Source: an uncultured bacterium (GTDB taxonomy: Bacteria > Margulisbacteria > WOR-1 > CAVSGV01). From it: DNA of 32,000 nucleotides. Below, piece after piece: positions 13,280-28,892 of this stretch. Location of the stretch: positions 1,080,001 to 1,112,000 of the forward strand of contig OY969425.1 in the NCBI GenBank assembly GCA_963699255.1, written 5' to 3'. Below the pieces are notes generated by a model. That model was given only the letters and a program-made list of their open reading frames with translations. It ran no database searches and was not told the DNA's origin. A program made the translations under genes and the position numbers. The stretch's first letter is position 1; every line of letters starts with the position of its first letter.

Positions 13280-13453
13280 ATGAGAATTTGTAAAGTATGC
13301 GGCTCGCTCCTAGTTCCATGCAACGAAGGCATAGATCATATCGGTTTACAGCCATATACACTTCCAAGAACTGTATATATCTGCCAGAGTTGCCTTACAG
13401 CGATACAAAATATCCTCGAATACGGTTTTTCCTCTCAATATATCAACGCTTAA
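13280..13453 (+). CDS. Small zinc-ribbon-like protein (CxxC...CxxC)
   Basis: The product is MRICKVCGSLLVPC...YICQSCLTAIQ. ATG 13280 is preceded by TAAGGTGA. The ORF track starts it at GTG 13271. It is followed directly by a terminator. Confidence 0.5.
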   Translation: MRICKVCGSLLVPCNEGIDHIGLQPYTLPRTVYICQSCLTAIQNILEYGFSSQYINA

Positions 13454-13459
13454 TCTCCA

Positions 13460-13492
13460 AGGCCTGATCCATCATCGGAACAGGCCTTTTTT
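13460..13492 (+). terminator. Rho-independent terminator ending the DprA-like/cargo operon of copy 1
   Basis: The structure is AGGCCTG-(14 nt)-CAGGCCT followed by TTTTTT. Confidence 0.7.
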
Positions 13493-14743
13493 GGTCGCGT
13501 TAACTTTCTTTCCCTTCCCATTCAAAACAAATCATTTCCGCGCCTCTCCAAGCACGAACACAAAAAAGACGACGCAGGCAGATACAGCTGGCTTGAAATG
13601 AAGACAAAGTCAACAGTTCTTGTAGTTAGCGATGAATTGCTGACAACCAAGGACATCTTTAGCAAAGCATGGGGAAACTAGGTCAAATGGTCCAAGCGAA
13701 AACACACGATGAAACCTGCTCCCTGCTTGCCTGCCTTTGTAGGGATTGCCTCTGGCTGGTATGATGGTATAAGTCTTGGTGTAGGCGGGTCTTGATAGAA
13801 AGCGATCAGCTGAAGCTGCTTTTTTTGCCTGCTTGTCTTTGGCCTGATAACCATTCATTGTTCCGCTGCCTTACTGTTGAAATGTAAAATATGTGCGGGA
13901 TTCCGACTTGTCTGCCGACAGGCAGGCTTTACGTCGGGAGTCATCGCCTGTCCCCCTCTTTACGAACTGTAAGGCTGGCGGAAGCCTCGGCAAAAGCGGA
14001 TGTCATTGTTAATTGTGTAACTGTCTCAATCTGAGTCTGAGAATGAAGCAAAACAAATGTTACATTTCAGCCAACGTGAAATAGCATGGATAATCGCCTT
14101 GCCCCGTTTTCAGTAGTGGGAAATGCTCACTGTTCTTTTTCAAAGCCGGTAGCTCCCTGCCAGCCTGCCCCGCCGCAGGCGGTAGCTTGTTCTGCCTACC
14201 CACCTTTGACGAGATCGGCCTGTCCGCCTCTCTACGAGCTGTATGGCTGGCGGAAGTATCGGGATAATGAACTTGCTTACCACACCACAGGGGGTAGCTT
14301 GCATCAACCGGAGCATCGGGGCGATGAGTTTACTTGTCCCGCCTGTTCGCCTCTGGAGAAAGCGAAGCCGTAAGCCGAGGACTCCGACCAAGCTCAGTCG
14401 AGGTCTTGAAGGAGTAGGTTTTGCAGCAATAGTTTCAAACTCCCAGCGTGTCTAAAACTCTTTGGGTCAGGTTCTTCTGTCTTTTGTTCGTATTCATATC
14501 TAACATCATTGATCCTTTGTCTTTCTCTACTGCTAATGAACAACATCTATGTATCAACTGTTAAAATGAATATCCTTGTGTACCGAAGTAACAAATAAAA
14601 TCCCAATTTGGCCGGTCTGGCCGCGCGCCTGCGCTCGTGCGTATGTGCCTGTGTACGCGTATCGTATATAGAGGGATACTGTGAAGTTCCCCGGCTAAGT
14701 CACAGTATCGGGAGATCATTCTGAACGCCGCAAATTCAGCTTC

Positions 14744-14772
14744 TTGCACCCGTGAATTGTATTAGGTAGAAT
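14744..14772 (+). promoter_or_regulatory. Sigma70-type promoter TTGCAC-17-TAGAAT, homologous to the tRNA-Pro promoter
   Basis: cTTGCACccgtgaattgtattaggTAGAAT compared with cTTGCACccgtgaatagtgttgggTATAAT (minus strand, 21156..21184). Confidence 0.55.
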
Positions 14773-14778
14773 AATGCT

Positions 14779-14861
14779 AACAGTTCGACCTGAAGAAGGT
14801 TGCGCTACCAAGAAATTGGAGCAAACCGCTGATTTTCCTAGATCGGCGGTTTTTCTTTTTT
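14779..14861 (+). ncRNA. Candidate small transcript: tRNA-3'-end-like stub fused to a copy of the tRNA-Glu trailer and terminator
   Basis: It lies downstream of promoter 14744..14772. The sequence is ...cagTTCGAcctgaagaaggttgcGCTACCA, then the trailer, then the terminator CCGCTGAT-N8-ATCGGCGG-TTTTTCTTTTTT (14826..14861). From GCTACCA onward it is identical to the sequence following tRNA-Glu. Confidence 0.3.
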
Positions 14862-14956
14862 GGGAAGGTGTTCGGCGGTCGGCGTTTGGGCGGCGGCAAA
14901 CGCCGACCGCCGGAAAAGAACCTCCGTTCAGATTTTCCGCGCCAAAATCACTATAA
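14804..14956. repeat. IR1-L: left copy of a perfect 153-bp inverted repeat
   Basis: It is the reverse complement of 16581..16733, checked base by base with 153/153 matches. Confidence 0.95.
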
Positions 14957-15027
14957 CTAATTACTATTGTTGTTTTTCTTTTTGTAAATTGGCGCCCAAT
15001 ACTCAATATCCAAATGAATCCGGCCTT

Positions 15028-15234
15028 TTAAGATAAGCCCAAAAGCTTGTCTACTGAAACCCCCAAACCCACAGCTATCGCCTTCACCATCTCGATTCCC
15101 GGATTTTTCACCATCCCTTTTTCAACTCTTAACAAGTGATGTGAAGTAAACTTACCGCCACATTTAAAAGCTAATTTCTCTCGCGACAGACCTGTTTTTT
15201 TTCGATATTTCTCGATATTTTCACCTAAGTGCAT
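15028..15234 (-). CDS. Xre-family helix-turn-helix transcriptional regulator
   Basis: The 68-aa product contains LGENIEKYRKKTGLSREKLAFKCG...LLRVEKG..NPGIEMVKAIAVGLGVSVDKLL (HTH_3 pattern). It is divergent from the recombinase gene. Confidence 0.8.
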   Translation of the reverse strand: MHLGENIEKYRKKTGLSREKLAFKCGGKFTSHHLLRVEKGMVKNPGIEMVKAIAVGLGVSVDKLLGLS

Positions 15235-15271
15235 AACGGATAGATTATAACATAATTGTCATAATATTTAT

Positions 15272-15300
15272 TTGACATGGTGGCATATATGTATTAACAT
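15272..15300 (+). promoter_or_regulatory. Promoter TTGACA-17-TAACAT for recombinase 1
   Basis: The sequence is TTGACAtggtggcatatatgtatTAACAT, followed by RBS GGAGGG and ATG 15325. Confidence 0.55.
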
Positions 15301-15324
15301 ACACCCCACTATAGGAGGGCCAAT

Positions 15325-16767
15325 ATGAAAATAGCTATATATACGCGTGTTTCAACCGACACCCAGGCCGACAAAGAATTCAATTCCTGTGAAGCTCAGG
15401 AGCAGAAGATAAGGTCATTTGTCTTAAGTCAGGAAAATATGATGGTTTATAAAGTCTATTCCGACCAGGGTTATACAGGGGCTAACACTGACCGCCCCGC
15501 TCTAACGGAAATGCTTAACGACATACAGAATAGCAAGGTCGATCTTGTCGCTGCCTATAAAATTGACCGTCTCACTAGGTCGCCGAAAGACTTTTATCAT
15601 TTAATTGATATATTTGAACAACACAAGGTCAATTTTATATCCGTTACTGAACGATTCGATACCTCCACCCCATCGGGACGGCTTCTCAGGAATATCATGC
15701 TTACTTTCGCGCAATTCGAAAGAGAGCTTATCAGTGAAAGAACAAGAGATAAAATGCACGAATGCGCGAAAAAAGGCCTCTGGACTTGCGGCCATACGCC
15801 ATTTGGTTATAAAAGGCTAGAAAAGAAACTGATCATTGAGCCGGTAGAAGCAAAGATTGTAAGGGCTATCTTTGAAATCTTTATCTCTACAGGTTCAACT
15901 GCTGAGGTTTATAAGAAACTGAAAGAGAAAAGTTTGTTTAACAGGCGCGGATTGCCTATATCTCAAGAAGAAATCGGGAAAATACTCAAACGGATTGTAT
16001 ATATCGGTAAAATCGAATTTAAAGGCAATATTTATCAGGGAATTCATGAGCCGATAATTTCTGCTGAGTTACTTGAGGCTGCTCAGGGACTTCGCAAAGA
16101 AAGGGCAAAGAAAAGTAAAGTATTCAATTTCTCTCTTTTCCCCGGAATAGTTCTCTGTAAGGAATGCGGCTCAGTAATGAGCGCATCTTTCTCTAATAAG
16201 TTTAAAGATGCCCGCCGCATTAGATATTTTTATTATCGATGCTCAAGCGTTACAAAAAGGGACATTTCTTTTTGCGCCACCAGATATGTCAGTGCCGACC
16301 GCCTTGACTCGTTCATCATCGATAGTCTTGATAAGATATCGAAAAATCGGCAGTATCTTGAGAGTTTGATCTTCACGCTCAACTATCAGCAGGATGGGTG
16401 CCAAAAGGGAATCGAACCGGTGGGGTCGGCTTCATCCTATTCTCCTGAAAGGTTGAAAGATATCCTTCGAGATATTACTATGGTCCCGAAGTTTAAGTCC
16501 AAAACTGAAAAGGAAATTATCATTCAGAAGCATATTAAACAGATCAATTATTCAAAGGAAGCTATTGAAGTCGTGATAAATTATAGTGATTTTGGCGCGG
16601 AAAATCTGAACGGAGGTTCTTTTCCGGCGGTCGGCGTTTGCCGCCGCCCAAACGCCGACCGCCGAACACCTTCCCAAAAAAGAAAAACCGCCGATCTAGG
16701 AAAATCAGCGGTTTGCTCCAATTTCTTGGTAGCCCCACGGGGAATCGAACCCCGATCGTCAGCTTGA
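15325..16767 (+). CDS. Large serine recombinase (resolvase catalytic domain, recombinase domain and zinc ribbon)
   Basis: The N-terminus is MKIAIYTRVSTDTQ (catalytic Ser), followed by YKIDRLTRS and LRNIMLTFAQFERELISERT. A CKECGS...YYRCS zinc ribbon is present. It is about 70-75% identical by eye to 26312..27790 over the N-terminal domain. The last ~62 codons are encoded by IR1-R, and the ORF stops inside antisense tRNA-Glu (...APRGIEPRSSA). Confidence 0.9.
   Translation: MKIAIYTRVSTDTQADKEFNSCEAQEQKIRSFVLSQENMMVYKVYSDQGYTGANTDRPALTEMLNDIQNSKVDLVAAYKIDRLTRSPKDFYHLIDIFEQHKVNFISVTERFDTSTPSGRLLRNIMLTFAQFERELISERTRDKMHECAKKGLWTCGHTPFGYKRLEKKLIIEPVEAKIVRAIFEIFISTGSTAEVYKKLKEKSLFNRRGLPISQEEIGKILKRIVYIGKIEFKGNIYQGIHEPIISAELLEAAQGLRKERAKKSKVFNFSLFPGIVLCKECGSVMSASFSNKFKDARRIRYFYYRCSSVTKRDISFCATRYVSADRLDSFIIDSLDKISKNRQYLESLIFTLNYQQDGCQKGIEPVGSASSYSPERLKDILRDITMVPKFKSKTEKEIIIQKHIKQINYSKEAIEVVINYSDFGAENLNGGSFPAVGVCRRPNADRRTPSQKRKTADLGKSAVCSNFLVAPRGIEPRSSA
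16581..16733. repeat. IR1-R: right copy of the 153-bp inverted repeat, comprising the last 7 nt of tRNA-Glu plus its 3' trailer
   Basis: See IR1-L. On the tRNA strand it contains the tRNA terminator (16676..16711) and a 15-bp perfect hairpin GGCGGTCGGCGTTTG-N8-CAAACGCCGACCGCC. Confidence 0.95.
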
Positions 16768-20791: not shown

Positions 20792-20923
20792 ATCTGTGCG
20801 GATTCTATCACACATTAATTCACGAGTAAATATACGCACCAAAATTTTCAATCGATCGGGTCCTCCCTCATAACCTAACAATTTCACGATCCCCTCAATT
20901 CCATCGAGGCGCTCTAAGAAAAA

Positions 20924-20998
<75 letters not shown>

Positions 20999-21117
20999 AC
21001 GGCTACGCCATAATGTCCAATTTCAAATGGCAAATGTCAAATTAAATCCAGTTTAAAATCCCTAATTTGGCATTTGTCATTGGTCATTTGTCATTCCATT
21101 CCGACCCCCGGTCGGGA

Positions 21118-21146
21118 TGGTGGCTCGACCCGTTTCCTGCCGAGCC
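21118..21146 (-). other. Acceptor-stem-like microhelix with an encoded ACCA end, in the tRNA-Pro leader
   Basis: The minus strand reads GGCTCGG-CAGGAAACGGG-TCGAGCC-ACCA, with a 7-bp stem (the last pair is G-T). It sits 9 nt downstream of the -10 box. Confidence 0.45.
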
Positions 21147-21155
21147 ATCCCTCTG

Positions 21156-21184
21156 ATTATACCCAACACTATTCACGGGTGCAA
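21156..21184 (-). promoter_or_regulatory. Promoter TTGCAC-17-TATAAT reading toward tRNA-Pro
   Basis: The minus strand reads cTTGCACccgtgaatagtgttgggTATAATcagaggg. It lies about 160 nt upstream of the mature tRNA-Pro 5' end. Confidence 0.6.
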
Positions 21185-21217
21185 GAAAAAGGATTTACAT
21201 AGGCTATAGCTAGAGGG

Positions 21218-21262
21218 AACAGCGGTCTTCGCTTCCCCCACACCCCCGCGAAGACCGCTGTT
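21218..21262 (-). terminator. Perfect 15-bp stem hairpin immediately after the protease stop codon, a likely operon terminator
   Basis: The structure is AACAGCGGTCTTCGC-(15 nt)-GCGAAGACCGCTGTT. There is no clear U-tract, so intrinsic termination is not certain. Confidence 0.5.
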
Positions 21263-21268
21263 AATTAA

Positions 21269-22000
21269 TCATGATTCTTTCTTTTTTTGAGATAGCGCAC
21301 TTTCTATGCCAAATAAAATTAAATGTGCTGAGCAAGCCAAGGAGATGCCGGAATTATAAGGTAGCTTTGCAACGCGTTTATTATTATCATCATATAAAGA
21401 AATTGAGTCGGGCAAAAACCCATATATTATTCCAATAAATTTCCCATCTTCTTGGGAGAATACTGGGGAGCCACTATTCCCGTGGCTGGCAGCCCCGTCA
21501 ATCAATAAAACATTTTTATCTTTTGTGATATTGGCAATGCTCCCTCGTCTAATAAACGGCTTAAATTGCAATTCTTCATTAGCAAGTCCCAATGGGTATC
21601 CTAAATATACAACAAATAAGCCCTCTTTAATCTCGCTATGCTGTTTCAGCTCGTCAACATCTAGTAATTCGCGCGGCCCAAACACTTCCTCCAGCGTTTT
21701 ACCAACATCCTCTTGCCTATGTGGTATTGAAAATAATGCCAAATCAAGGTTTGTATGAGCAGTTTCAAACTTGACTTTTCTTATTATCCTCTTATCGGGA
21801 TTAAGAAGCACTTTTATTTCACCATTTCTTGCAAGTTGGCCTACATGTTTATTTGTTAAAATAAAAGGAACAAATTCATCTTGCGATATCTTCTTTTGTA
21901 TAAGTGTGCCAGTCATTGATGGTGTTTCACGCTCCCAATCCAATATTGCAACAACACTTTTGTGACGTTTAATGTAAATTTCCCTGGTATCAATCGCCAT
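21269..22000 (-). CDS. Trypsin-like (S1/Trypsin_2-type) serine protease, with no signal peptide
   Basis: The catalytic-triad context is ILTNKHV (His), NLDLALF (Asp) and GAASHGNSGSPVF (Ser). The product is 243 aa. Confidence 0.75.
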   Translation of the reverse strand: MAIDTREIYIKRHKSVVAILDWERETPSMTGTLIQKKISQDEFVPFILTNKHVGQLARNGEIKVLLNPDKRIIRKVKFETAHTNLDLALFSIPHRQEDVGKTLEEVFGPRELLDVDELKQHSEIKEGLFVVYLGYPLGLANEELQFKPFIRRGSIANITKDKNVLLIDGAASHGNSGSPVFSQEDGKFIGIIYGFLPDSISLYDDNNKRVAKLPYNSGISLACSAHLILFGIESALSQKKKES

Positions 22001-22124
22001 ATTGTTTCATGCCCCCTTTCTCAATCATCTCTTTACCCTGCCATTCTATTAATTATTTCCTGAATCATCTCAAGATGTTTAATTTTGTTTGACATCATTT
22101 AGCCTTCAATAAATCGCTCTAAAA

Positions 22125-23114
22125 TTATTTGCACAACAAATATTTAACTTTATTGCCTGACCCAACACATTTAATTTTACCTTCAGAAGCGAGTTCTTTT
22201 ACATATTTACAGACCGTGAGATATCCCCTTCTAATTGTATGTGATATTTCATTTATAGATAGTTTGTCCGCAGTTTGCAACAATTGAATAATTTGCTGCT
22301 TACTTTCCATCTTTCTTTCTTTAGCCTCTCTTGATCTTGCTTCCACGGTTTTTGAAAATGCTGCTAATGTATTAGGATGCATTCTATGTTTAGGCCTTTC
22401 GATACCATATTCTATTCTAAATTTATGTATATTCCCCCAATACCGATTAATCTTCCTCCAAGTTAACGCCCAAGACATCCTCGAGCTTAGTTCTGTTGTG
22501 CTGGGATGATGCCCTAAGCAATCAACTATCTGCTGATACCCTTGCAAGCATTTCCCAATCCTTTGTTGCCTTTTGTATTCACCATAATCAATATTAAAAT
22601 GCTTAATAAGTAACTTTAAGTCAATATTATCAATATTAAGCTTCTCGCATAATTCGTTTGTATTAAATGTTTCTCTGATAGCCGCGATAATCCTATCCCT
22701 TGAATATGAGGTGACAAGCTTTTCAATGTTATGCACCTTGTGCCTTTCATAAACAAATAACCCGTACTTACCGCCCTTTTCCAATAATTGTCTTACGCGT
22801 TCCCTTGTAACATTTAATTCATCTCCAACTTTTTGTAACGTTAAATATTTATCATATAGTGTTTTTACCTCCATCAAATGTTTTGCTACATCAGGGGAAA
22901 CAGGCCTCTCTATCCCCAACCTTTTTCGAAGTTCAAATATTCCAATCCCTCCATCAGGATCAAGCAACTCTAAAAGAAATGAATACGGCACATTAAGTAT
23001 TTGTGCTACCTTAACCAAGGAATAAGCATTTCGCCACATTCTAATAATCTCATACTTAATGGCCTCAGAATTCTTGGTGTTAAACAATAACTGCAGTTTT
23101 TTTAATGGCTTCAT
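22125..23114 (-). CDS. Multi-HTH DNA-binding protein with sigma-70 region-4-like repeats and a C-terminal winged helix
   Basis: It contains LTLQKVGDELNVTRERVRQLLEKG (sigma r4-like), SLVKVAQILNVPYSFLLELL and RYWGNIHKFRIEYGI. The C-terminal region is LSINEISHTIRRGYLTVCKYVKELASEGKIK. Its start overlaps the GHKL gene stop by 4 bp (ATGA). Confidence 0.6.
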   Translation of the reverse strand: MKPLKKLQLLFNTKNSEAIKYEIIRMWRNAYSLVKVAQILNVPYSFLLELLDPDGGIGIFELRKRLGIERPVSPDVAKHLMEVKTLYDKYLTLQKVGDELNVTRERVRQLLEKGGKYGLFVYERHKVHNIEKLVTSYSRDRIIAAIRETFNTNELCEKLNIDNIDLKLLIKHFNIDYGEYKRQQRIGKCLQGYQQIVDCLGHHPSTTELSSRMSWALTWRKINRYWGNIHKFRIEYGIERPKHRMHPNTLAAFSKTVEARSREAKERKMESKQQIIQLLQTADKLSINEISHTIRRGYLTVCKYVKELASEGKIKCVGSGNKVKYLLCK

Positions 23115-24853
23115 TCTTCTGTCTCTTTAGGCGCCTGTTTTGAGGCAAGCCGGGCTAACTCATTGTAGACTTGATTAAAAATAATAAGGTTCCCTTCGCT
23201 ATAGTCATGGGAAATTTCAGTAAAAGCAACATCACGAACAAGGCTATCCAGACAAGCATCCTTTGAAGCTCTTATATAAAAACTATGCTTTTCGTTGATC
23301 TCAATTAAATTGCTATCCTTTGTAAACTTCACTAAATCTCCTGTTTCTGACATATCTACAGTATTTATATTATAATTCTTGCCTGAATATGCCATTTTTT
23401 CTGCTTTATTAAGACTTTGGTTCCTTCTTTCCCTTTTATCTTTCCCTCTAGTTACAACACCAGCTGCTTTTTTTGCCTCTTCTTCAACCTTATCTAAATT
23501 CGGATAAGGATTATCGGGCGCGTTCTCAATTTCCTTTGTAAACTCTTTTTTAATTTTTGCTTCTAAACTACCCAGAGTAAGCGGATCATCAAGTTTAGAA
23601 ACAATAGTATTTACTTCGGTCTCAACTCGCTTTACTATATTTCGATCCTGTTCCTTCTTTGCAGTTTCATCTTTTTTTAATAACTTATTTTGAACATCAG
23701 AAATTGACTTGTGTCCAAAATCCCAATACTCCCGATATTCAGGACAATCTACGAAATCGTTTTTTGCAAATGTAACAAAGTTTTTAAGCCCGTCCGCTTC
23801 CCCATATCCAAATAACCTATATCGATATCTTCCTCCTGATGTTAATCTAAACAAATCAAACCATTCAGCTTTCTCATTGACAATTCTGCCATTTACTCGC
23901 GTCCATACCCCCTGCTTTGTTACAGGGATAGGCTCTTTGGTGAAATAGATAACTAATTTTACATGGCCAATTAGCTTGAGATCTTTCTCATATTCAAATT
24001 TTTCGTTATACTCAAATTTTGGCTCCTCTATTTCAATATCTTTTCTTTCTCTCTCTTTAATAATTGACATAATTATTTTAAAGTTTTGACTTTTTGGCAT
24101 TTTATTTTCAAATCGTTCAATCAAGCGATCACTATCAATAGTTTTAGCGTTTAATTGTTCCATATAAATTGCTGTACCATGTAAGTCTTTTCCACATTGC
24201 TTTGTGAACACTTTGCTTCTTATTGCACTTACATATTTTGCCTTGTCCAATTCTGCTCTATTCATATTGAAAATATGTTCTTTTCCATCTTTTTTCGTTA
24301 TTATCTTGCATACCTTACATATATTTGTTATTGCTAATTTACCACCCATTCCATATTCGCCAATTGGAGATCTACTAAATTTTGGGGATTTTGAATCAGC
24401 AGTTTTATTACTTTCTCCGTATATTACATATGATGCGAGAGCTTCTTCGTCCATCCCATTTCCATCATCAATAATATTTAAAGCATTTTTGTCATAATCT
24501 AATATTATCTGGACCGTAGTTGCGTCTGCATCATATGCGTTAACAATTAATTCTTCGATATTTGAAGCAAGTTCTTGAAAGGTTCTTTTTGCCATCTTTT
24601 TAATGCCGACTGTTGCAAAATCTCCCCTTAATTCCCATTCCTTAAATTCTTCTCCTTCATTTTCCGATTTAATATTCTCATGGTCATGAATGTAATCCGT
24701 AACAGTCTTTTTTGAGAATTTGTATCTTGATCCAACTTTCCTTCCGGGAAGATCCCCTTTTTCAGCTAATTTATAAAGTGTCTGTCTCGTAATTCCAAGC
24801 AATTTACATGCTTCTTCGGTAGATATTGGTTCCAATAAATTATTTTCATTCAT
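23111..24853 (-). CDS. Fusion of an excisionase/MerR-type HTH with a GHKL (HATPase_c_3, MORC-like) ATPase and a large uncharacterised C-terminal region
   Basis: The HTH is EEACKLLGITRQTLYKLAEKGDLPGRKVGSRYKF. The Bergerat-fold motifs are N-box EELIVNAYDADAT, G1 IIDDGNGMD and G2 IGEYGMGGKLA. The product is 580 aa. RBS GGGAGG is present. Confidence 0.75.
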   Translation of the reverse strand: MNENNLLEPISTEEACKLLGITRQTLYKLAEKGDLPGRKVGSRYKFSKKTVTDYIHDHENIKSENEGEEFKEWELRGDFATVGIKKMAKRTFQELASNIEELIVNAYDADATTVQIILDYDKNALNIIDDGNGMDEEALASYVIYGESNKTADSKSPKFSRSPIGEYGMGGKLAITNICKVCKIITKKDGKEHIFNMNRAELDKAKYVSAIRSKVFTKQCGKDLHGTAIYMEQLNAKTIDSDRLIERFENKMPKSQNFKIIMSIIKERERKDIEIEEPKFEYNEKFEYEKDLKLIGHVKLVIYFTKEPIPVTKQGVWTRVNGRIVNEKAEWFDLFRLTSGGRYRYRLFGYGEADGLKNFVTFAKNDFVDCPEYREYWDFGHKSISDVQNKLLKKDETAKKEQDRNIVKRVETEVNTIVSKLDDPLTLGSLEAKIKKEFTKEIENAPDNPYPNLDKVEEEAKKAAGVVTRGKDKRERRNQSLNKAEKMAYSGKNYNINTVDMSETGDLVKFTKDSNLIEINEKHSFYIRASKDACLDSLVRDVAFTEISHDYSEGNLIIFNQVYNELARLASKQAPKETEE

Positions 24854-24905
24854 AATAGTTCAACCTCCCAATTACTTATTTTAACACATTTACTAATACA
24901 TACAG

Positions 24906-24934
24906 ATATTAACACATATTAACATTTATGTCAA
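24906..24934 (-). promoter_or_regulatory. Strong promoter TTGACA-17-TAATAT for the GHKL operon, overlapped by a tandem 9-bp direct repeat
   Basis: The minus strand reads cTTGACAtaaatgttaatatgtgtTAATATctg. The repeat TGTTAATAT-g-TGTTAATAT (plus-strand coordinates 24906..24924) covers the spacer and the -10 box. Confidence 0.65.
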
Positions 24935-25002
24935 GAGGCAAAATGCTGGGCGCCATTTATAAGAGTGGGGGTCTAAGGAACGCGCCCGCATGTAGTGAAT
25001 GC

Positions 25003-25048
25003 GTTGGGTATAATCAGAGGTCTGGCTCGGCAGGAAACGGGTCGAGCC
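25003..25048. repeat. Inverted copy of the tRNA-Pro promoter and microhelix module
   Basis: gttgggTATAATcagaggtctGGCTCGGCAGGAAACGGGTCGAGCC is the reverse complement of 21122..21167, with a 3-nt difference (tct versus gat). Weaker identity extends to gtgaat (24995..25000). Confidence 0.9.
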
Positions 25049-25081
25049 ATTTTATCGTTCCCGCAAACCATTGCGGATTTT
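25021..25081 (+). ncRNA. Candidate ~60-nt transcript: microhelix fused at the discriminator position to a copy of the tRNA-Met trailer and terminator (a tRNA-gene mimic)
   Basis: The -10 TATAAT lies at 25009..25014. The microhelix GGCTCGG..TCGAGCC-A is at 25024..25049. The trailer follows, with terminator CCGCAA-acca-TTGCGG-ATTTT at 25061..25081. Confidence 0.3.
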
Positions 25082-25231
25082 GGGCGGCTTGGAGCGGCGC
25101 TTGCGTCGCGACAAGCCGCCTTATTCTTAGCTGAAAGCAAGTTCTCTTCCGCCGAAGGGTCGCAAAGCGGGCCGTAGGCGGCATTTTTAGCGTCAGCGCA
25201 GGAAGGATCTCCGCTCTCGGAATACAATAAC
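25047..25231. repeat. IR2-L: left copy of a 185-bp inverted repeat
   Basis: It is the reverse complement of 27568..27752 with 184/185 matches. The single mismatch is at 25206. Confidence 0.95.
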
Positions 25232-25296
25232 ATGCCTTCTATTGCCTCTATCGAATATTATGCCACTTTCCGATGTGCCATTTAATTTTTCCATCA

Positions 25297-25591
25297 TTTC
25301 CAGTATAGCATTTTTTTGCTTTTCTCCTGTAAAGGTCGCTCACGGAGGGACTTCGTATAAAGCACTCTATCCAGAAAAATCCTCATCCTTGCGGATATTT
25401 TCTGGTAAAAGTTCGCTCCCTCCTCCAGTCGCCCGCCTCCGGCGAGGCTCCTTCCGGCCCTCCGCTTCGTTACGCTCTCTCGCCCATATCTCCGCTTAAG
25501 GTAGGCTCGTTCGCTTCACTCGCTTCGGGTGACAGGCGCAAAAAAATGCTCCTCCTTCCTTGTATTCATATTTTTTACAGGAGGTGGTCAT
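25297..25591 (+). ncRNA. Conserved structured non-coding leader (copy 2)
   Basis: It is homologous to 11719..12015. The hairpins are at 25371..25405 (CCAGAAAA...TTTTCTGG) and 25431..25448 (GCCCGCC-tcc-GGCGAGGC). ORF 25242..25499 is not conserved in frame in copy 1. Confidence 0.5.
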
Positions 25592-26116
25592 ATGTCTCGT
25601 ATTGTTGGTATTGTTGGTTCCAGGTCTCTTCCCGCTTCTTTTTCCTCGCTCATTTCCTCGCTTGTGTCCGCGTTAGTTGCTCGTGGTTTCAGGGTGGCCT
25701 CAGGCGGCGCTGTAGGGGCTGATCAGTTTGCTCTTTCAGCCCTCGTTGAGCAGGGTTTGTCTGCATCGGGTGTTGTTTTTTCTGCCTGGGCTTCCGCTTC
25801 CGGTTTTCCTGTTCCGGTCCGGCCTCTTGTTTCCCGTTTTCTTGCTTCCGGTGGTCAGGTTGTTTGGGGTTCCGGTTCGTCGTCTCAGCCTCGTTCAGCG
25901 GTGGTTTCCGCGCTTCTCGGCAGGAACAGCCGTCTTGTTTCAGCCTGTTCGCTTGTCATTGCTTTCATTCACGGCCAGTCCCGGGGAACGCTTTACACCA
26001 TCCGTCAGGCTGTCAGGCGCGGTATTCCTGTTTATGTGTTCCTTTGCAGTGAGGCTTCATTGCCAGCTGATTTGGCTCCTCACTGTTTAGTTATAAATAA
26101 AAGGGAGGTGGTTTAG
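25592..26116 (+). CDS. Minimal DprA-like protein (DNA_processg_A Rossmann core only, 174 aa), with an extremely adenine-poor coding strand
   Basis: RBS AGGAGGTGG precedes ATG 25592. The product contains IVGIVGSRSLP...VASGGAVGADQFALSAL...ALLGRNSRLVSACSLVIAFIHGQSRGTLYTIRQAVRRGIPVYVF. This follows the DprA pattern (GSR ... SG.A.G.D ... RN.... S..V.V.E....SG.L.T...A...G..V...). The SAM and winged-helix domains of full-length DprA are absent. Confidence 0.65.
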   Translation: MSRIVGIVGSRSLPASFSSLISSLVSALVARGFRVASGGAVGADQFALSALVEQGLSASGVVFSAWASASGFPVPVRPLVSRFLASGGQVVWGSGSSSQPRSAVVSALLGRNSRLVSACSLVIAFIHGQSRGTLYTIRQAVRRGIPVYVFLCSEASLPADLAPHCLVINKREVV

Positions 26117-26117
26117 T

Positions 26118-26309
26118 ATGGTTTTCATTCCCATTCATCCGTGCTGTTACTGTGGAAAAACCGAGACAGGATATGCCTGTACGACAGCAGAAAAAGTCGA
26201 GTGTTTTAAATTTCTGAATTATATTCAGAAACTCAACAGAATGAGGGCGCAGAAAGTGCTGATAAAAGAGCTTAAATATTTACTAGAAACAAACAAAGGA
26301 GGTAAATAA
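26118..26309 (+). CDS. Cys-rich 63-aa protein conserved in both elements
   Basis: The product begins MVFIPIHPCCYCGKTETGYACTTAEKVECFKFLNYIQKLNRMRAQKVLIKELKYLL... It is coupled to the DprA-like stop (TAGTATG). Its homologue is 12553..12729. Confidence 0.7.
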   Translation: MVFIPIHPCCYCGKTETGYACTTAEKVECFKFLNYIQKLNRMRAQKVLIKELKYLLETNKGGK

Positions 26310-26311
26310 TC

Positions 26312-27821
<1,510 letters not shown>

Positions 27822-28534: not shown

Positions 28535-28699
28535 GCGGATGCAGATTATATCAGAATTTGCGCTTTTTGTGAACACCCTGTAAAATATAATGACAAATAT
28601 TCAATGACCAATGTCAAATGAATGAATGTATAATCATTATTCTTTAACTTGTCATTTGTAATTTGTTCATTGGGAATTATCCCGCGAAAGCGGGATTGC

Positions 28700-28774
28700 G
28701 GGCGGTTAGTTCAGCGGTAGAACGCTTGCTTCACACGCAAGAAGTCAAAGGTTCGATTCCTTTACCGCCCACCA
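28700..28774 (+). tRNA. tRNA-Val (anticodon CAC), CCA encoded
   Basis: The sequence is GGGCGGTTAGTTCAGCGGTAGAACGCTTGCTTCACACGCAAGAAGTCAAAGGTTCGATTCCTTTACCGCCCACCA. Confidence 0.9.
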
Positions 28775-28892
28775 CTCCGCCTTTGGCGGAGAATGACAAA
28801 TGTCCAATGACCAATGTCAAATTAATGTATAATCATTATTCCTTAATTTGTCATTTGTAATTTGTTCATTGGAAATTATCCCGAAGGGATCA

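Follow-up and report, generated by a model that had tools for sequence, protein, structure and literature searches.

A tRNA-like promoter-hairpin unit is probably an internal attP-like site of a large serine recombinase element in a WOR-1 bacterium

The closest described counterparts of the locus studied here are the attachment sites of serine integrases. In the model of Rutherford et al. 2013 (PMC3783163) for the A118/LI integrase and others, the zinc-ribbon-domain motif lies at positions 16-24 in attP and is found in attB 5 bp nearer to the centre. Further counterparts are the end-borne, state-dependent promoters of integrative elements, namely the 3'-end promoter of ICEKp1 and that of ICEclc (Liu et al. 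2026, PMC13023037). We compared with these systems a promoter-hairpin unit at positions 24995-25081 of a 32,000-nt stretch of DNA (hereafter the window, which is the whole stretch analysed; contig OY969425.1, forward-strand positions 1,080,001 to 1,112,000) from an uncultured bacterium of the Margulisbacteria lineage WOR-1. The studied genome comprises 1.77 Mb in one contig and encodes 44 tRNAs. A sequence-only reading had described the unit as a tRNA-gene mimic. We assign instead a probability of about 0.72 to the reading that it is the centre of an intact, internal and inverted attP-like site of a large serine recombinase (LSR) element, with the hairpin as the P arm of that site.

The described layout of the unit was borne out by the sequence. 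On the plus strand, the perfect -10 box TATAAT of the internal copy of the promoter (25009-25014) is followed by a 9-nt spacer, GGCTCGG (25024-25030), an 11-nt loop, TCGAGCC (25042-25048), and A25049. The predicted stem reaches 9 bp with the T25023-A25049 pair included, and from the fold and the family alignment the "acceptor-like" hairpin was delimited to 25023-25049 (plus strand). Folded as RNA, the 26-mer hairpin gave -15.1 kcal/mol (z = -4.45), which was equalled by one of 200 shuffled sequences. The -10 box and the hairpin (47-56 nt) are present again, inverted, at 21121-21176 with 93-96% identity, approximately 120 nt upstream of tRNA-Pro, and the promoter-hairpin sequence is conserved in other genomes too. 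Due to this inverted copy and this conservation, we do not regard the hairpin unit as a chance occurrence.

The sequence-only reading had placed the downstream join of the hairpin at the discriminator position of tRNA-Met (27750-27821, minus strand), and this held as well; the join falls at the CCA shared by the two arms of a 212-nt inverted repeat (25047-25258 and 27541-27752, 98% identical), which corresponds to the discriminator end of the tRNA. The repeat flanks three genes, a DprA-like gene, a 63-aa ORF, and an LSR gene of 492 aa (26312-27790, plus strand). The LSR matched the Pfam domains Resolvase (PF00239, 2e-40), Recombinase (PF07508, 3.8e-11), and Zn_ribbon_recom (PF13408, 6.4e-10), and its ORF traverses the right repeat arm and enters tRNA-Met on the antisense strand. 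That right arm (27541-27752, minus strand) abuts tRNA-Met and holds a second copy of the segment T, whose first copy (25050-25258, plus strand) consists of the P' arm and the remainder of the left repeat arm. In a tblastn search, LSR residues 405-481 were found to be encoded at 25050-25258 on the minus strand, so that T is an inverted duplicate of the 3' end of the LSR gene. Homologues of T, approximately 70% identical, occur as inverted pairs in elements of 11 other genomes at other tRNAs; counted by tRNA species, at least 14 others are represented. Because T encodes the LSR tail and has homologues in elements at other tRNAs, the supposed copied trailer of tRNA-Met is element DNA. The native trailer sits 6.6 kb away, at 21120.

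The position of the unit in the element also had to be revised, since the unit had been taken for the outer left boundary, whereas the element runs on to 21121 and the unit is internal. In an empty-site comparison, the sequence from 27750 onward was joined to the sequence up to 21120, and the product ran collinear with the tRNA-Met/spacer/tRNA-Pro locus of a same-family genome (G001), in which this locus is uninterrupted. The collinearity covers the native trailer hairpin and the AATGACAAATG repeats. Because the rejoined flanks match this uninterrupted locus, the stretch 21121-27749 is an insertion, a 6.6-kb integrative element seated at the discriminator/CCA end of tRNA-Met. The native trailer, here called z (CCATCCCGACCGGGGGTCGG..., 21000-21120, minus strand), runs to tRNA-Pro (20923-20999) and is likewise collinear with G001.

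Three junction types were distinguished. The attL junction joins the tRNA to T (27750), the attR junction joins M, the element segment that carries the promoter and the hairpin, to z (21121), and the studied stretch joins M to T (M|T). The attR end (21121-21184, minus strand) contains the second copy of the P-arm hairpin (21147-21121) behind an outward-facing promoter. The CCA at 25047-25049 is the sole stretch common to attL, attR, and the internal M|T junction; the corresponding cores at two further units of the same genome are GCTA (tRNA-Glu unit) and CCCAG (tRNA-Gln unit). Three hybrid junctions that share only a short core are the pattern expected of an attP x attB exchange by a serine integrase, and the M|T junction of both ends within the integrated element amounts to a second attP. 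Replicative transposition was rejected as the origin of the inverted copies, because the junction types fit an attP x attB exchange together with a resident second site. We also considered the folding of the two inverted sites, as single strands, into a double-stranded attP; this was rejected on paper, as exchange in a double strand would leave hairpin-capped chromosome ends.

For the comparison with related elements, LSR homologues were collected at E<=1e-80; they occurred in 23 of the 65 genomes of the class, and 33 loci were fetched. In most of these loci the LSR gene is convergent on a tRNA gene, and the targets comprise tRNAs for Met, Val, Lys, Tyr, Ile, Ala, Glu, Asn, Gln, Leu, and Arg. 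The recombinase module is bracketed by a repeat of approximately 130-260 nt (mostly 210-220 nt). In at least eight loci, a second repeat pair begins exactly where the first ends and brackets a cargo module of approximately 2.5-7 kb. The alignment set paired each of 22 internal junctions with its attL partner, took the discriminator as anchor, and covered 15 tRNA species (defined by anticodon).

We looked among the related loci for a free, unintegrated form, in which M would flank both sides, and found none. Two candidates were explained otherwise; one locus (L033) has a tRNA-like end that ARAGORN missed, and the other (L012, contig G037:C4, 5747-8342, at tRNA-Tyr) contains a recombinase module that is flipped between the repeat arms and whose recombinase gene is frameshifted. 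The flipped module indicates that the repeat arms recombine in nature. In another search, the exact 15-mer GGTCGAGCCATTTTA was matched across the genome contigs at at least 120 loci, which on inspection were chance matches, and only one of them had even one flanking box.

The alignment gave a consensus for the P arm from 22 elements, aATgGTTcGa.aA.gA...GgtCGagCCA, in which two boxes are recognised. The distal box, GGCTCGG (25024-25030, plus strand; family form RGTTYGR), resembles a tRNA T-loop, forms the 5' strand of the hairpin, and is a putative zinc-ribbon binding motif. Counted from the discriminator position, it begins at -25 in 17 of the 22 elements and at -24 in two more, where the partner box is also off by one. 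In the tRNA itself, GGTTCGA begins at -21, so that in most elements the attP box is set 4 bp outward relative to it (3 bp in two). Within the P' arm, a small hairpin (25061-25076) contains GCAAACC (25063-25069, plus strand), which is complementary to the T-loop-like box; in family form, GCRAACY was found at +14 or +15 in 20 of 22 elements, with a constant start-to-start distance of 39 nt and a constant site of 46 bp. The crossover-proximal box, GTCGAGCCA (25041-25049, plus strand), forms the 3' strand of the hairpin and ends in the core CCA (25047-25049), and GTCGAG(S)CA is kept among the elements at tRNAs for Met, Lys, Ile, and Leu. The distal box and its complement in the P' arm are placed unevenly about the allowed crossover, by 2 nt with CC or CA as the core. 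On the host side of attR, no consistent box was recognised by eye in the B' arm.

Taken with its surroundings, the site thus has a cognate LSR adjacent to it, hybrid attL and attR junctions, an empty attB in G001, an imperfect dyad with distal motifs, and a shifted motif in attB. The sequence-only reading had also named, among its options, a part of the recombinase target in the form of a junction between acceptor end and trailer, and this option was essentially right, M|T being an attP-like junction. It had further proposed that the idea would fall if the hairpin or the position of the junction were unconserved; related elements keep both. We also considered that the unit might be a decayed form of the target tRNA and judged this unlikely, because the offset is constant over 15 tRNA species and the T-loop box alone is tRNA-like, not the target-specific T-stem.

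The same data bear on the view that the unit is a rearrangement scar, a non-functional remnant of an inversion or duplication between the upstream region of tRNA-Pro and the trailer of tRNA-Met. The unit is indeed a chimera of two stretches that are each present elsewhere in the window. However, the same M|T junction and box spacing recur in at least 20 elements, spread over several families in the class and 15 tRNA species, and identity between the two repeat arms of one element is mostly 92-99% (78-99% overall), against approximately 70% between elements. We therefore consider a scar extremely improbable.

If the attP-like reading is correct, the LSR would have inserted the element at the discriminator/CCA end of tRNA-Met, and the crossover dinucleotide would lie within CCA. 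The zinc-ribbon domain of the LSR would read the T-loop box in both attP and attB, and the 4-bp shift of the box would distinguish the two sites, as in the published serine-integrase model. The tRNA likeness of the unit would then operate at the level of DNA, with the attP arm imitating the T-loop and the 3' end that the recombinase reads in its target. The hairpin is accounted for in the same way, because the two boxes are near-complementary; TGG pairs with CCA, and both boxes have a TCGA-like core.

For the question of whether the hairpin structure itself is selected, 12 relatives of this subtype were compared. In these sequences, 80.6% of the cells were paired, against 76.4% after the partners were shuffled among sequences, and 30-44% when the partners were slid by 1-3 columns. 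Two of nine hairpin pairs change on both sides, and elements with a GCA core retain TGG in the box, which breaks one pair. RNAalifold did not call the hairpin on the family alignment, whereas the same alignment yielded a stem-loop in T with nine compensatory pairs. Pairing thus appears to be mostly a consequence of the conserved boxes for protein recognition. In foldability, 10 of 22 P arms were better than shuffled sequence at p <= 0.03 (mean z -1.5), and complementarity was 5.68 of 9 pairs within elements and 5.10 between elements (permutation p = 0.002, uncorrected for relatedness). The T.G wobbles are confined to the promoter-sense strand. From the foldability, the complementarity within elements, and the strand-specific wobbles, some selection for the hairpin in RNA or in single-stranded DNA is possible, and the P arm may have a secondary role as a 5' stem-loop of an RNA.

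These results also weigh on the tRNA-gene mimic, according to which the unit encodes a minihelix RNA of approximately 60 nt, with an acceptor stem, which RNase P, CCA-adding enzyme, or an aminoacyl-tRNA synthetase would accept as a substrate or bind as a decoy. The hairpin is stable, its 7-9-bp stem ends at the discriminator A or one nucleotide short of it, the sequence ...GAGCC-A-CCA is present, by coincidence, in the attR copy, and copy 1 of the element (the studied unit being copy 2) has an analogous hairpin flush with its own discriminator. Against this, the stem was compared with all 44 acceptor stems of the genome, and none matched, the best having 4 mismatches of 14. No tRNA-like sequence or RNA family was detected at 24995-25081 by ARAGORN or Rfam (gathering threshold, and E<=5 on 24850-25550 and 13400-15000). 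The T-loop-like box lies in the stem and not in the loop, many family members lack a flush hairpin, and there is almost no covariation beyond the motifs. Moreover, the flush discriminator end is fully explained by the position of the crossover, and the ACCA at attR belongs to host DNA that was shifted by the insertion. A mimic of this kind is therefore very unlikely, and a short RNA from the M|T unit would most likely be a by-product or a leader.

Of the promoter that had been claimed for the unit, the -10 box is perfect, whereas the -35 position at 17-nt spacing reads CCGCAT, and the internal promoter was not listed in a sigma-70 consensus scan. The -35 is also absent from the closest relative of this copy. 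At the attR copy, TTGCAC (21184-21179) is followed by a 17-nt spacer and TATAAT (21161-21156), facing outward, although this promoter falls below the 4-of-6 rule of the scan; in relatives, the attR ends carry a conserved outward TTGCAN-17-TATAAT. The outward promoter at attR probably drives again the host genes that the insertion severed from the tRNA promoter. The internal TATAAT would be the end-borne promoter of the element, facing T and the recombinase operon, with its -35 lost.

Another outward promoter was observed at locus L009 (G028:C1, 4081-4131), where the promoter and hairpin end 4 nt before a tRNA-Val(UAC) gene. In this genome, which is 95% complete, the tRNA-Val(UAC) beside the element is the only such gene found. 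The layout implies that tRNA-Met and tRNA-Val were adjacent before the insertion, and the tRNA-Val(UAC) gene is predicted to rely now on element DNA for its upstream region. Upstream sequences of a different kind were noted in the studied genome, as a AATGACAAATGACCAATG-type motif is repeated upstream of many tRNA genes and some protein genes (for example, window 21012-21110 and 28589-28830), with at least 30 blast hits genome-wide; it may be an upstream promoter element of the host organism.

The terminator proposed for the unit (25061-25085), which includes the small hairpin with the P' box, did not hold up, as its 6-bp stem is followed by only four T's, the scan did not list it, and most relatives lack a T tract. 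A GC-rich, covarying stem-loop followed by TTATTCTT lies beside it (25082-25121, plus strand; inverted copy at 27669-27708). In this stem-loop, 99% of the cells were paired, 9 of 16 pairs were compensatory, and on the tRNA-sense strand one G.U was invariant; the opposite strand here codes for the recombinase tail. For transcripts that enter T, the stem-loop is the likelier candidate for an intrinsic terminator, and it probably terminates the transcripts from the tRNA and from M. A further stem-loop in the M region, SL0 (24950-24990, unstranded; GGGCGC ... GCGCCC, loop ..AGAGTGGGGG.. / ..TTATAAGAGTGGGGGTCTAAGG..), lies between the promoter of the cargo operon and the -10 box of M. Across 13 related elements, four of its nine stem pairs showed compensatory changes. 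SL0 could be a site for a regulator or a directionality factor, or an RNA.

Promoter and stem-loops together allow the view that the attP-like site is also an expressed gene, transcribed into a small RNA of approximately 60-110 nt or into a 5' leader for the recombinase operon. The hairpin at the 5' end would add stability to this RNA, whose T-sense body, complementary to the final ~200 nt of the recombinase mRNA, could make the level of recombinase depend on the state of the element. In agreement with this, most elements keep a -10 box 9-10 nt ahead of the T-loop-like box, the hairpin begins a few nucleotides past the predicted transcription start, and its wobble pairs are specific to one strand. 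T adds the strongly covarying stem-loop, with the invariant G.U on the same strand and then a T-rich run. In addition, the end-borne promoters of ICEKp1 and ICEclc drive integrase genes in a state-dependent manner (PMC13023037). The DprA-like gene, a micro-ORF, and the LSR gene follow the internal copy in the same direction, so that this copy may function as a leader with attenuation. However, the -35 has been lost here and in the closest relative, the covariation in T may partly stem from the reading frame of the recombinase on the other strand, and conservation of the G.U pair is the sole basis for the strand assignment. On balance, we hold an expressed gene at this site to be unlikely.

A more elaborate form of this view makes the spare attP a working gene, whose RNA of approximately 100 nt (P-arm hairpin, small hairpin, and covarying terminator stem-loop) would match the tail of the recombinase mRNA in perfect antisense. 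This RNA and the read-through transcript from the tRNA would jointly tune the recombinase according to the integrated, excised, or flipped state. We regard this as quite unlikely; if true, the attachment site would double as an RNA regulator.

The attP-like reading can be set beside two further units of the studied genome, at tRNA-Glu (window 14799-16738) and at tRNA-Gln (genome 887041-888958), which have inverted repeats of 160-200 nt with 97-98% identity. In all three units, the flank outside the tRNA-distal arm has a distant inverted duplicate, which comprises 56 nt at 3.8 kb in the tRNA-Met unit, 1292 nt (100%) at 38 kb in the tRNA-Glu unit, and 914 nt (99%) at 17 kb in the tRNA-Gln unit. 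For the tRNA-Glu element, the far end was located at genome 1054069-1055360, a 1292-bp, 100% inverted copy of the internal M region (window 13516-14807), 38 kb apart. If the same logic holds, this element would span approximately 42.7 kb and take in the first 16.7 kb of the window together with an ORF of 2071 aa. In its GC-rich M region, we found no convincing ORF and no Rfam match.

Beside the far-end M copies of two elements, a protein of approximately 450-490 aa was noted (genome 1055524-1056999 and 869639-871003). From its translation, read by eye, it appears to combine an N-terminal region resembling tyrosine recombinases with a P-loop ATPase (GPLGIGKTHLL).

The reading as an attP-like site replaces the tempting reading as a tRNA-mimic small RNA with a DNA mechanism that can be tested. 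The LSR family appears to read a near-universal T-loop box and to discriminate between its own site and the target through the 4-bp displacement of that box. The 22 natural attP/attB pairs at 15 tRNA species form a comparative series for testing the zinc-ribbon-shift model of directionality, and the same series can show which part of the site sets the choice of target, which would be useful for reprogramming serine integrases. The outward promoter, in turn, suggests how such elements can sit in tRNA operons without silencing the downstream tRNA.

We compared the locus with four kinds of described systems; in the literature searched, we found no description of a T-loop recognition box, of an ORF that crosses its own site, or of a spare inverted attP kept in an integrated element. 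With tRNA acceptor minihelices and tRNA-like structures, the hairpin shares a 7-9-bp stem followed by an unpaired purine at the discriminator position. In contrast to them, it has no stack of T-stem and T-loop and no match to an acceptor stem, its 3' end is undefined, its covariation is minimal, and its tRNA-like box lies within the stem.

Tyrosine-integrase elements, such as P4-like islands and ICEs, have an attP with a copy of the tRNA 3' end; like the present element, they insert at the 3' end of a tRNA gene and supply a new downstream sequence. Here, 3-7 nt are shared, whereas those elements have a direct repeat of 20-50 nt, the tRNA likeness is a displaced motif and not a collinear copy, and the enzyme is a serine recombinase. 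As in ICEKp1 and ICEclc, the end promoter faces outward over the attachment site and is joined to the other end on reconstitution, and downstream stem-loops can attenuate it. The difference is that the reconstituted arrangement is here also kept permanently inside the integrated element, and that the outward copy, whose activity is predicted, appears to serve host tRNA genes.

The likeness to the attP of serine integrases (Listeria A118/LI, Bxb1, phiC31, and SPbeta) comprises a short site of approximately 46 bp, two inverted boxes around a short core, the same box nearer the crossover in the target, an adjacent enzyme with Resolvase, Recombinase, and Zn_ribbon_recom domains, and hybrid attL and attR junctions that share only the core. 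The shift is 4 bp here and 5 bp in the published sites (PMC3783163). Unlike in those systems, the recombinase ORF crosses the site, a second, inverted and intact attP is kept, and the recombination is predicted from sequence. The box here is, moreover, the near-universal T-loop sequence of tRNAs, and through it a single recombinase family reaches 15 tRNA species.
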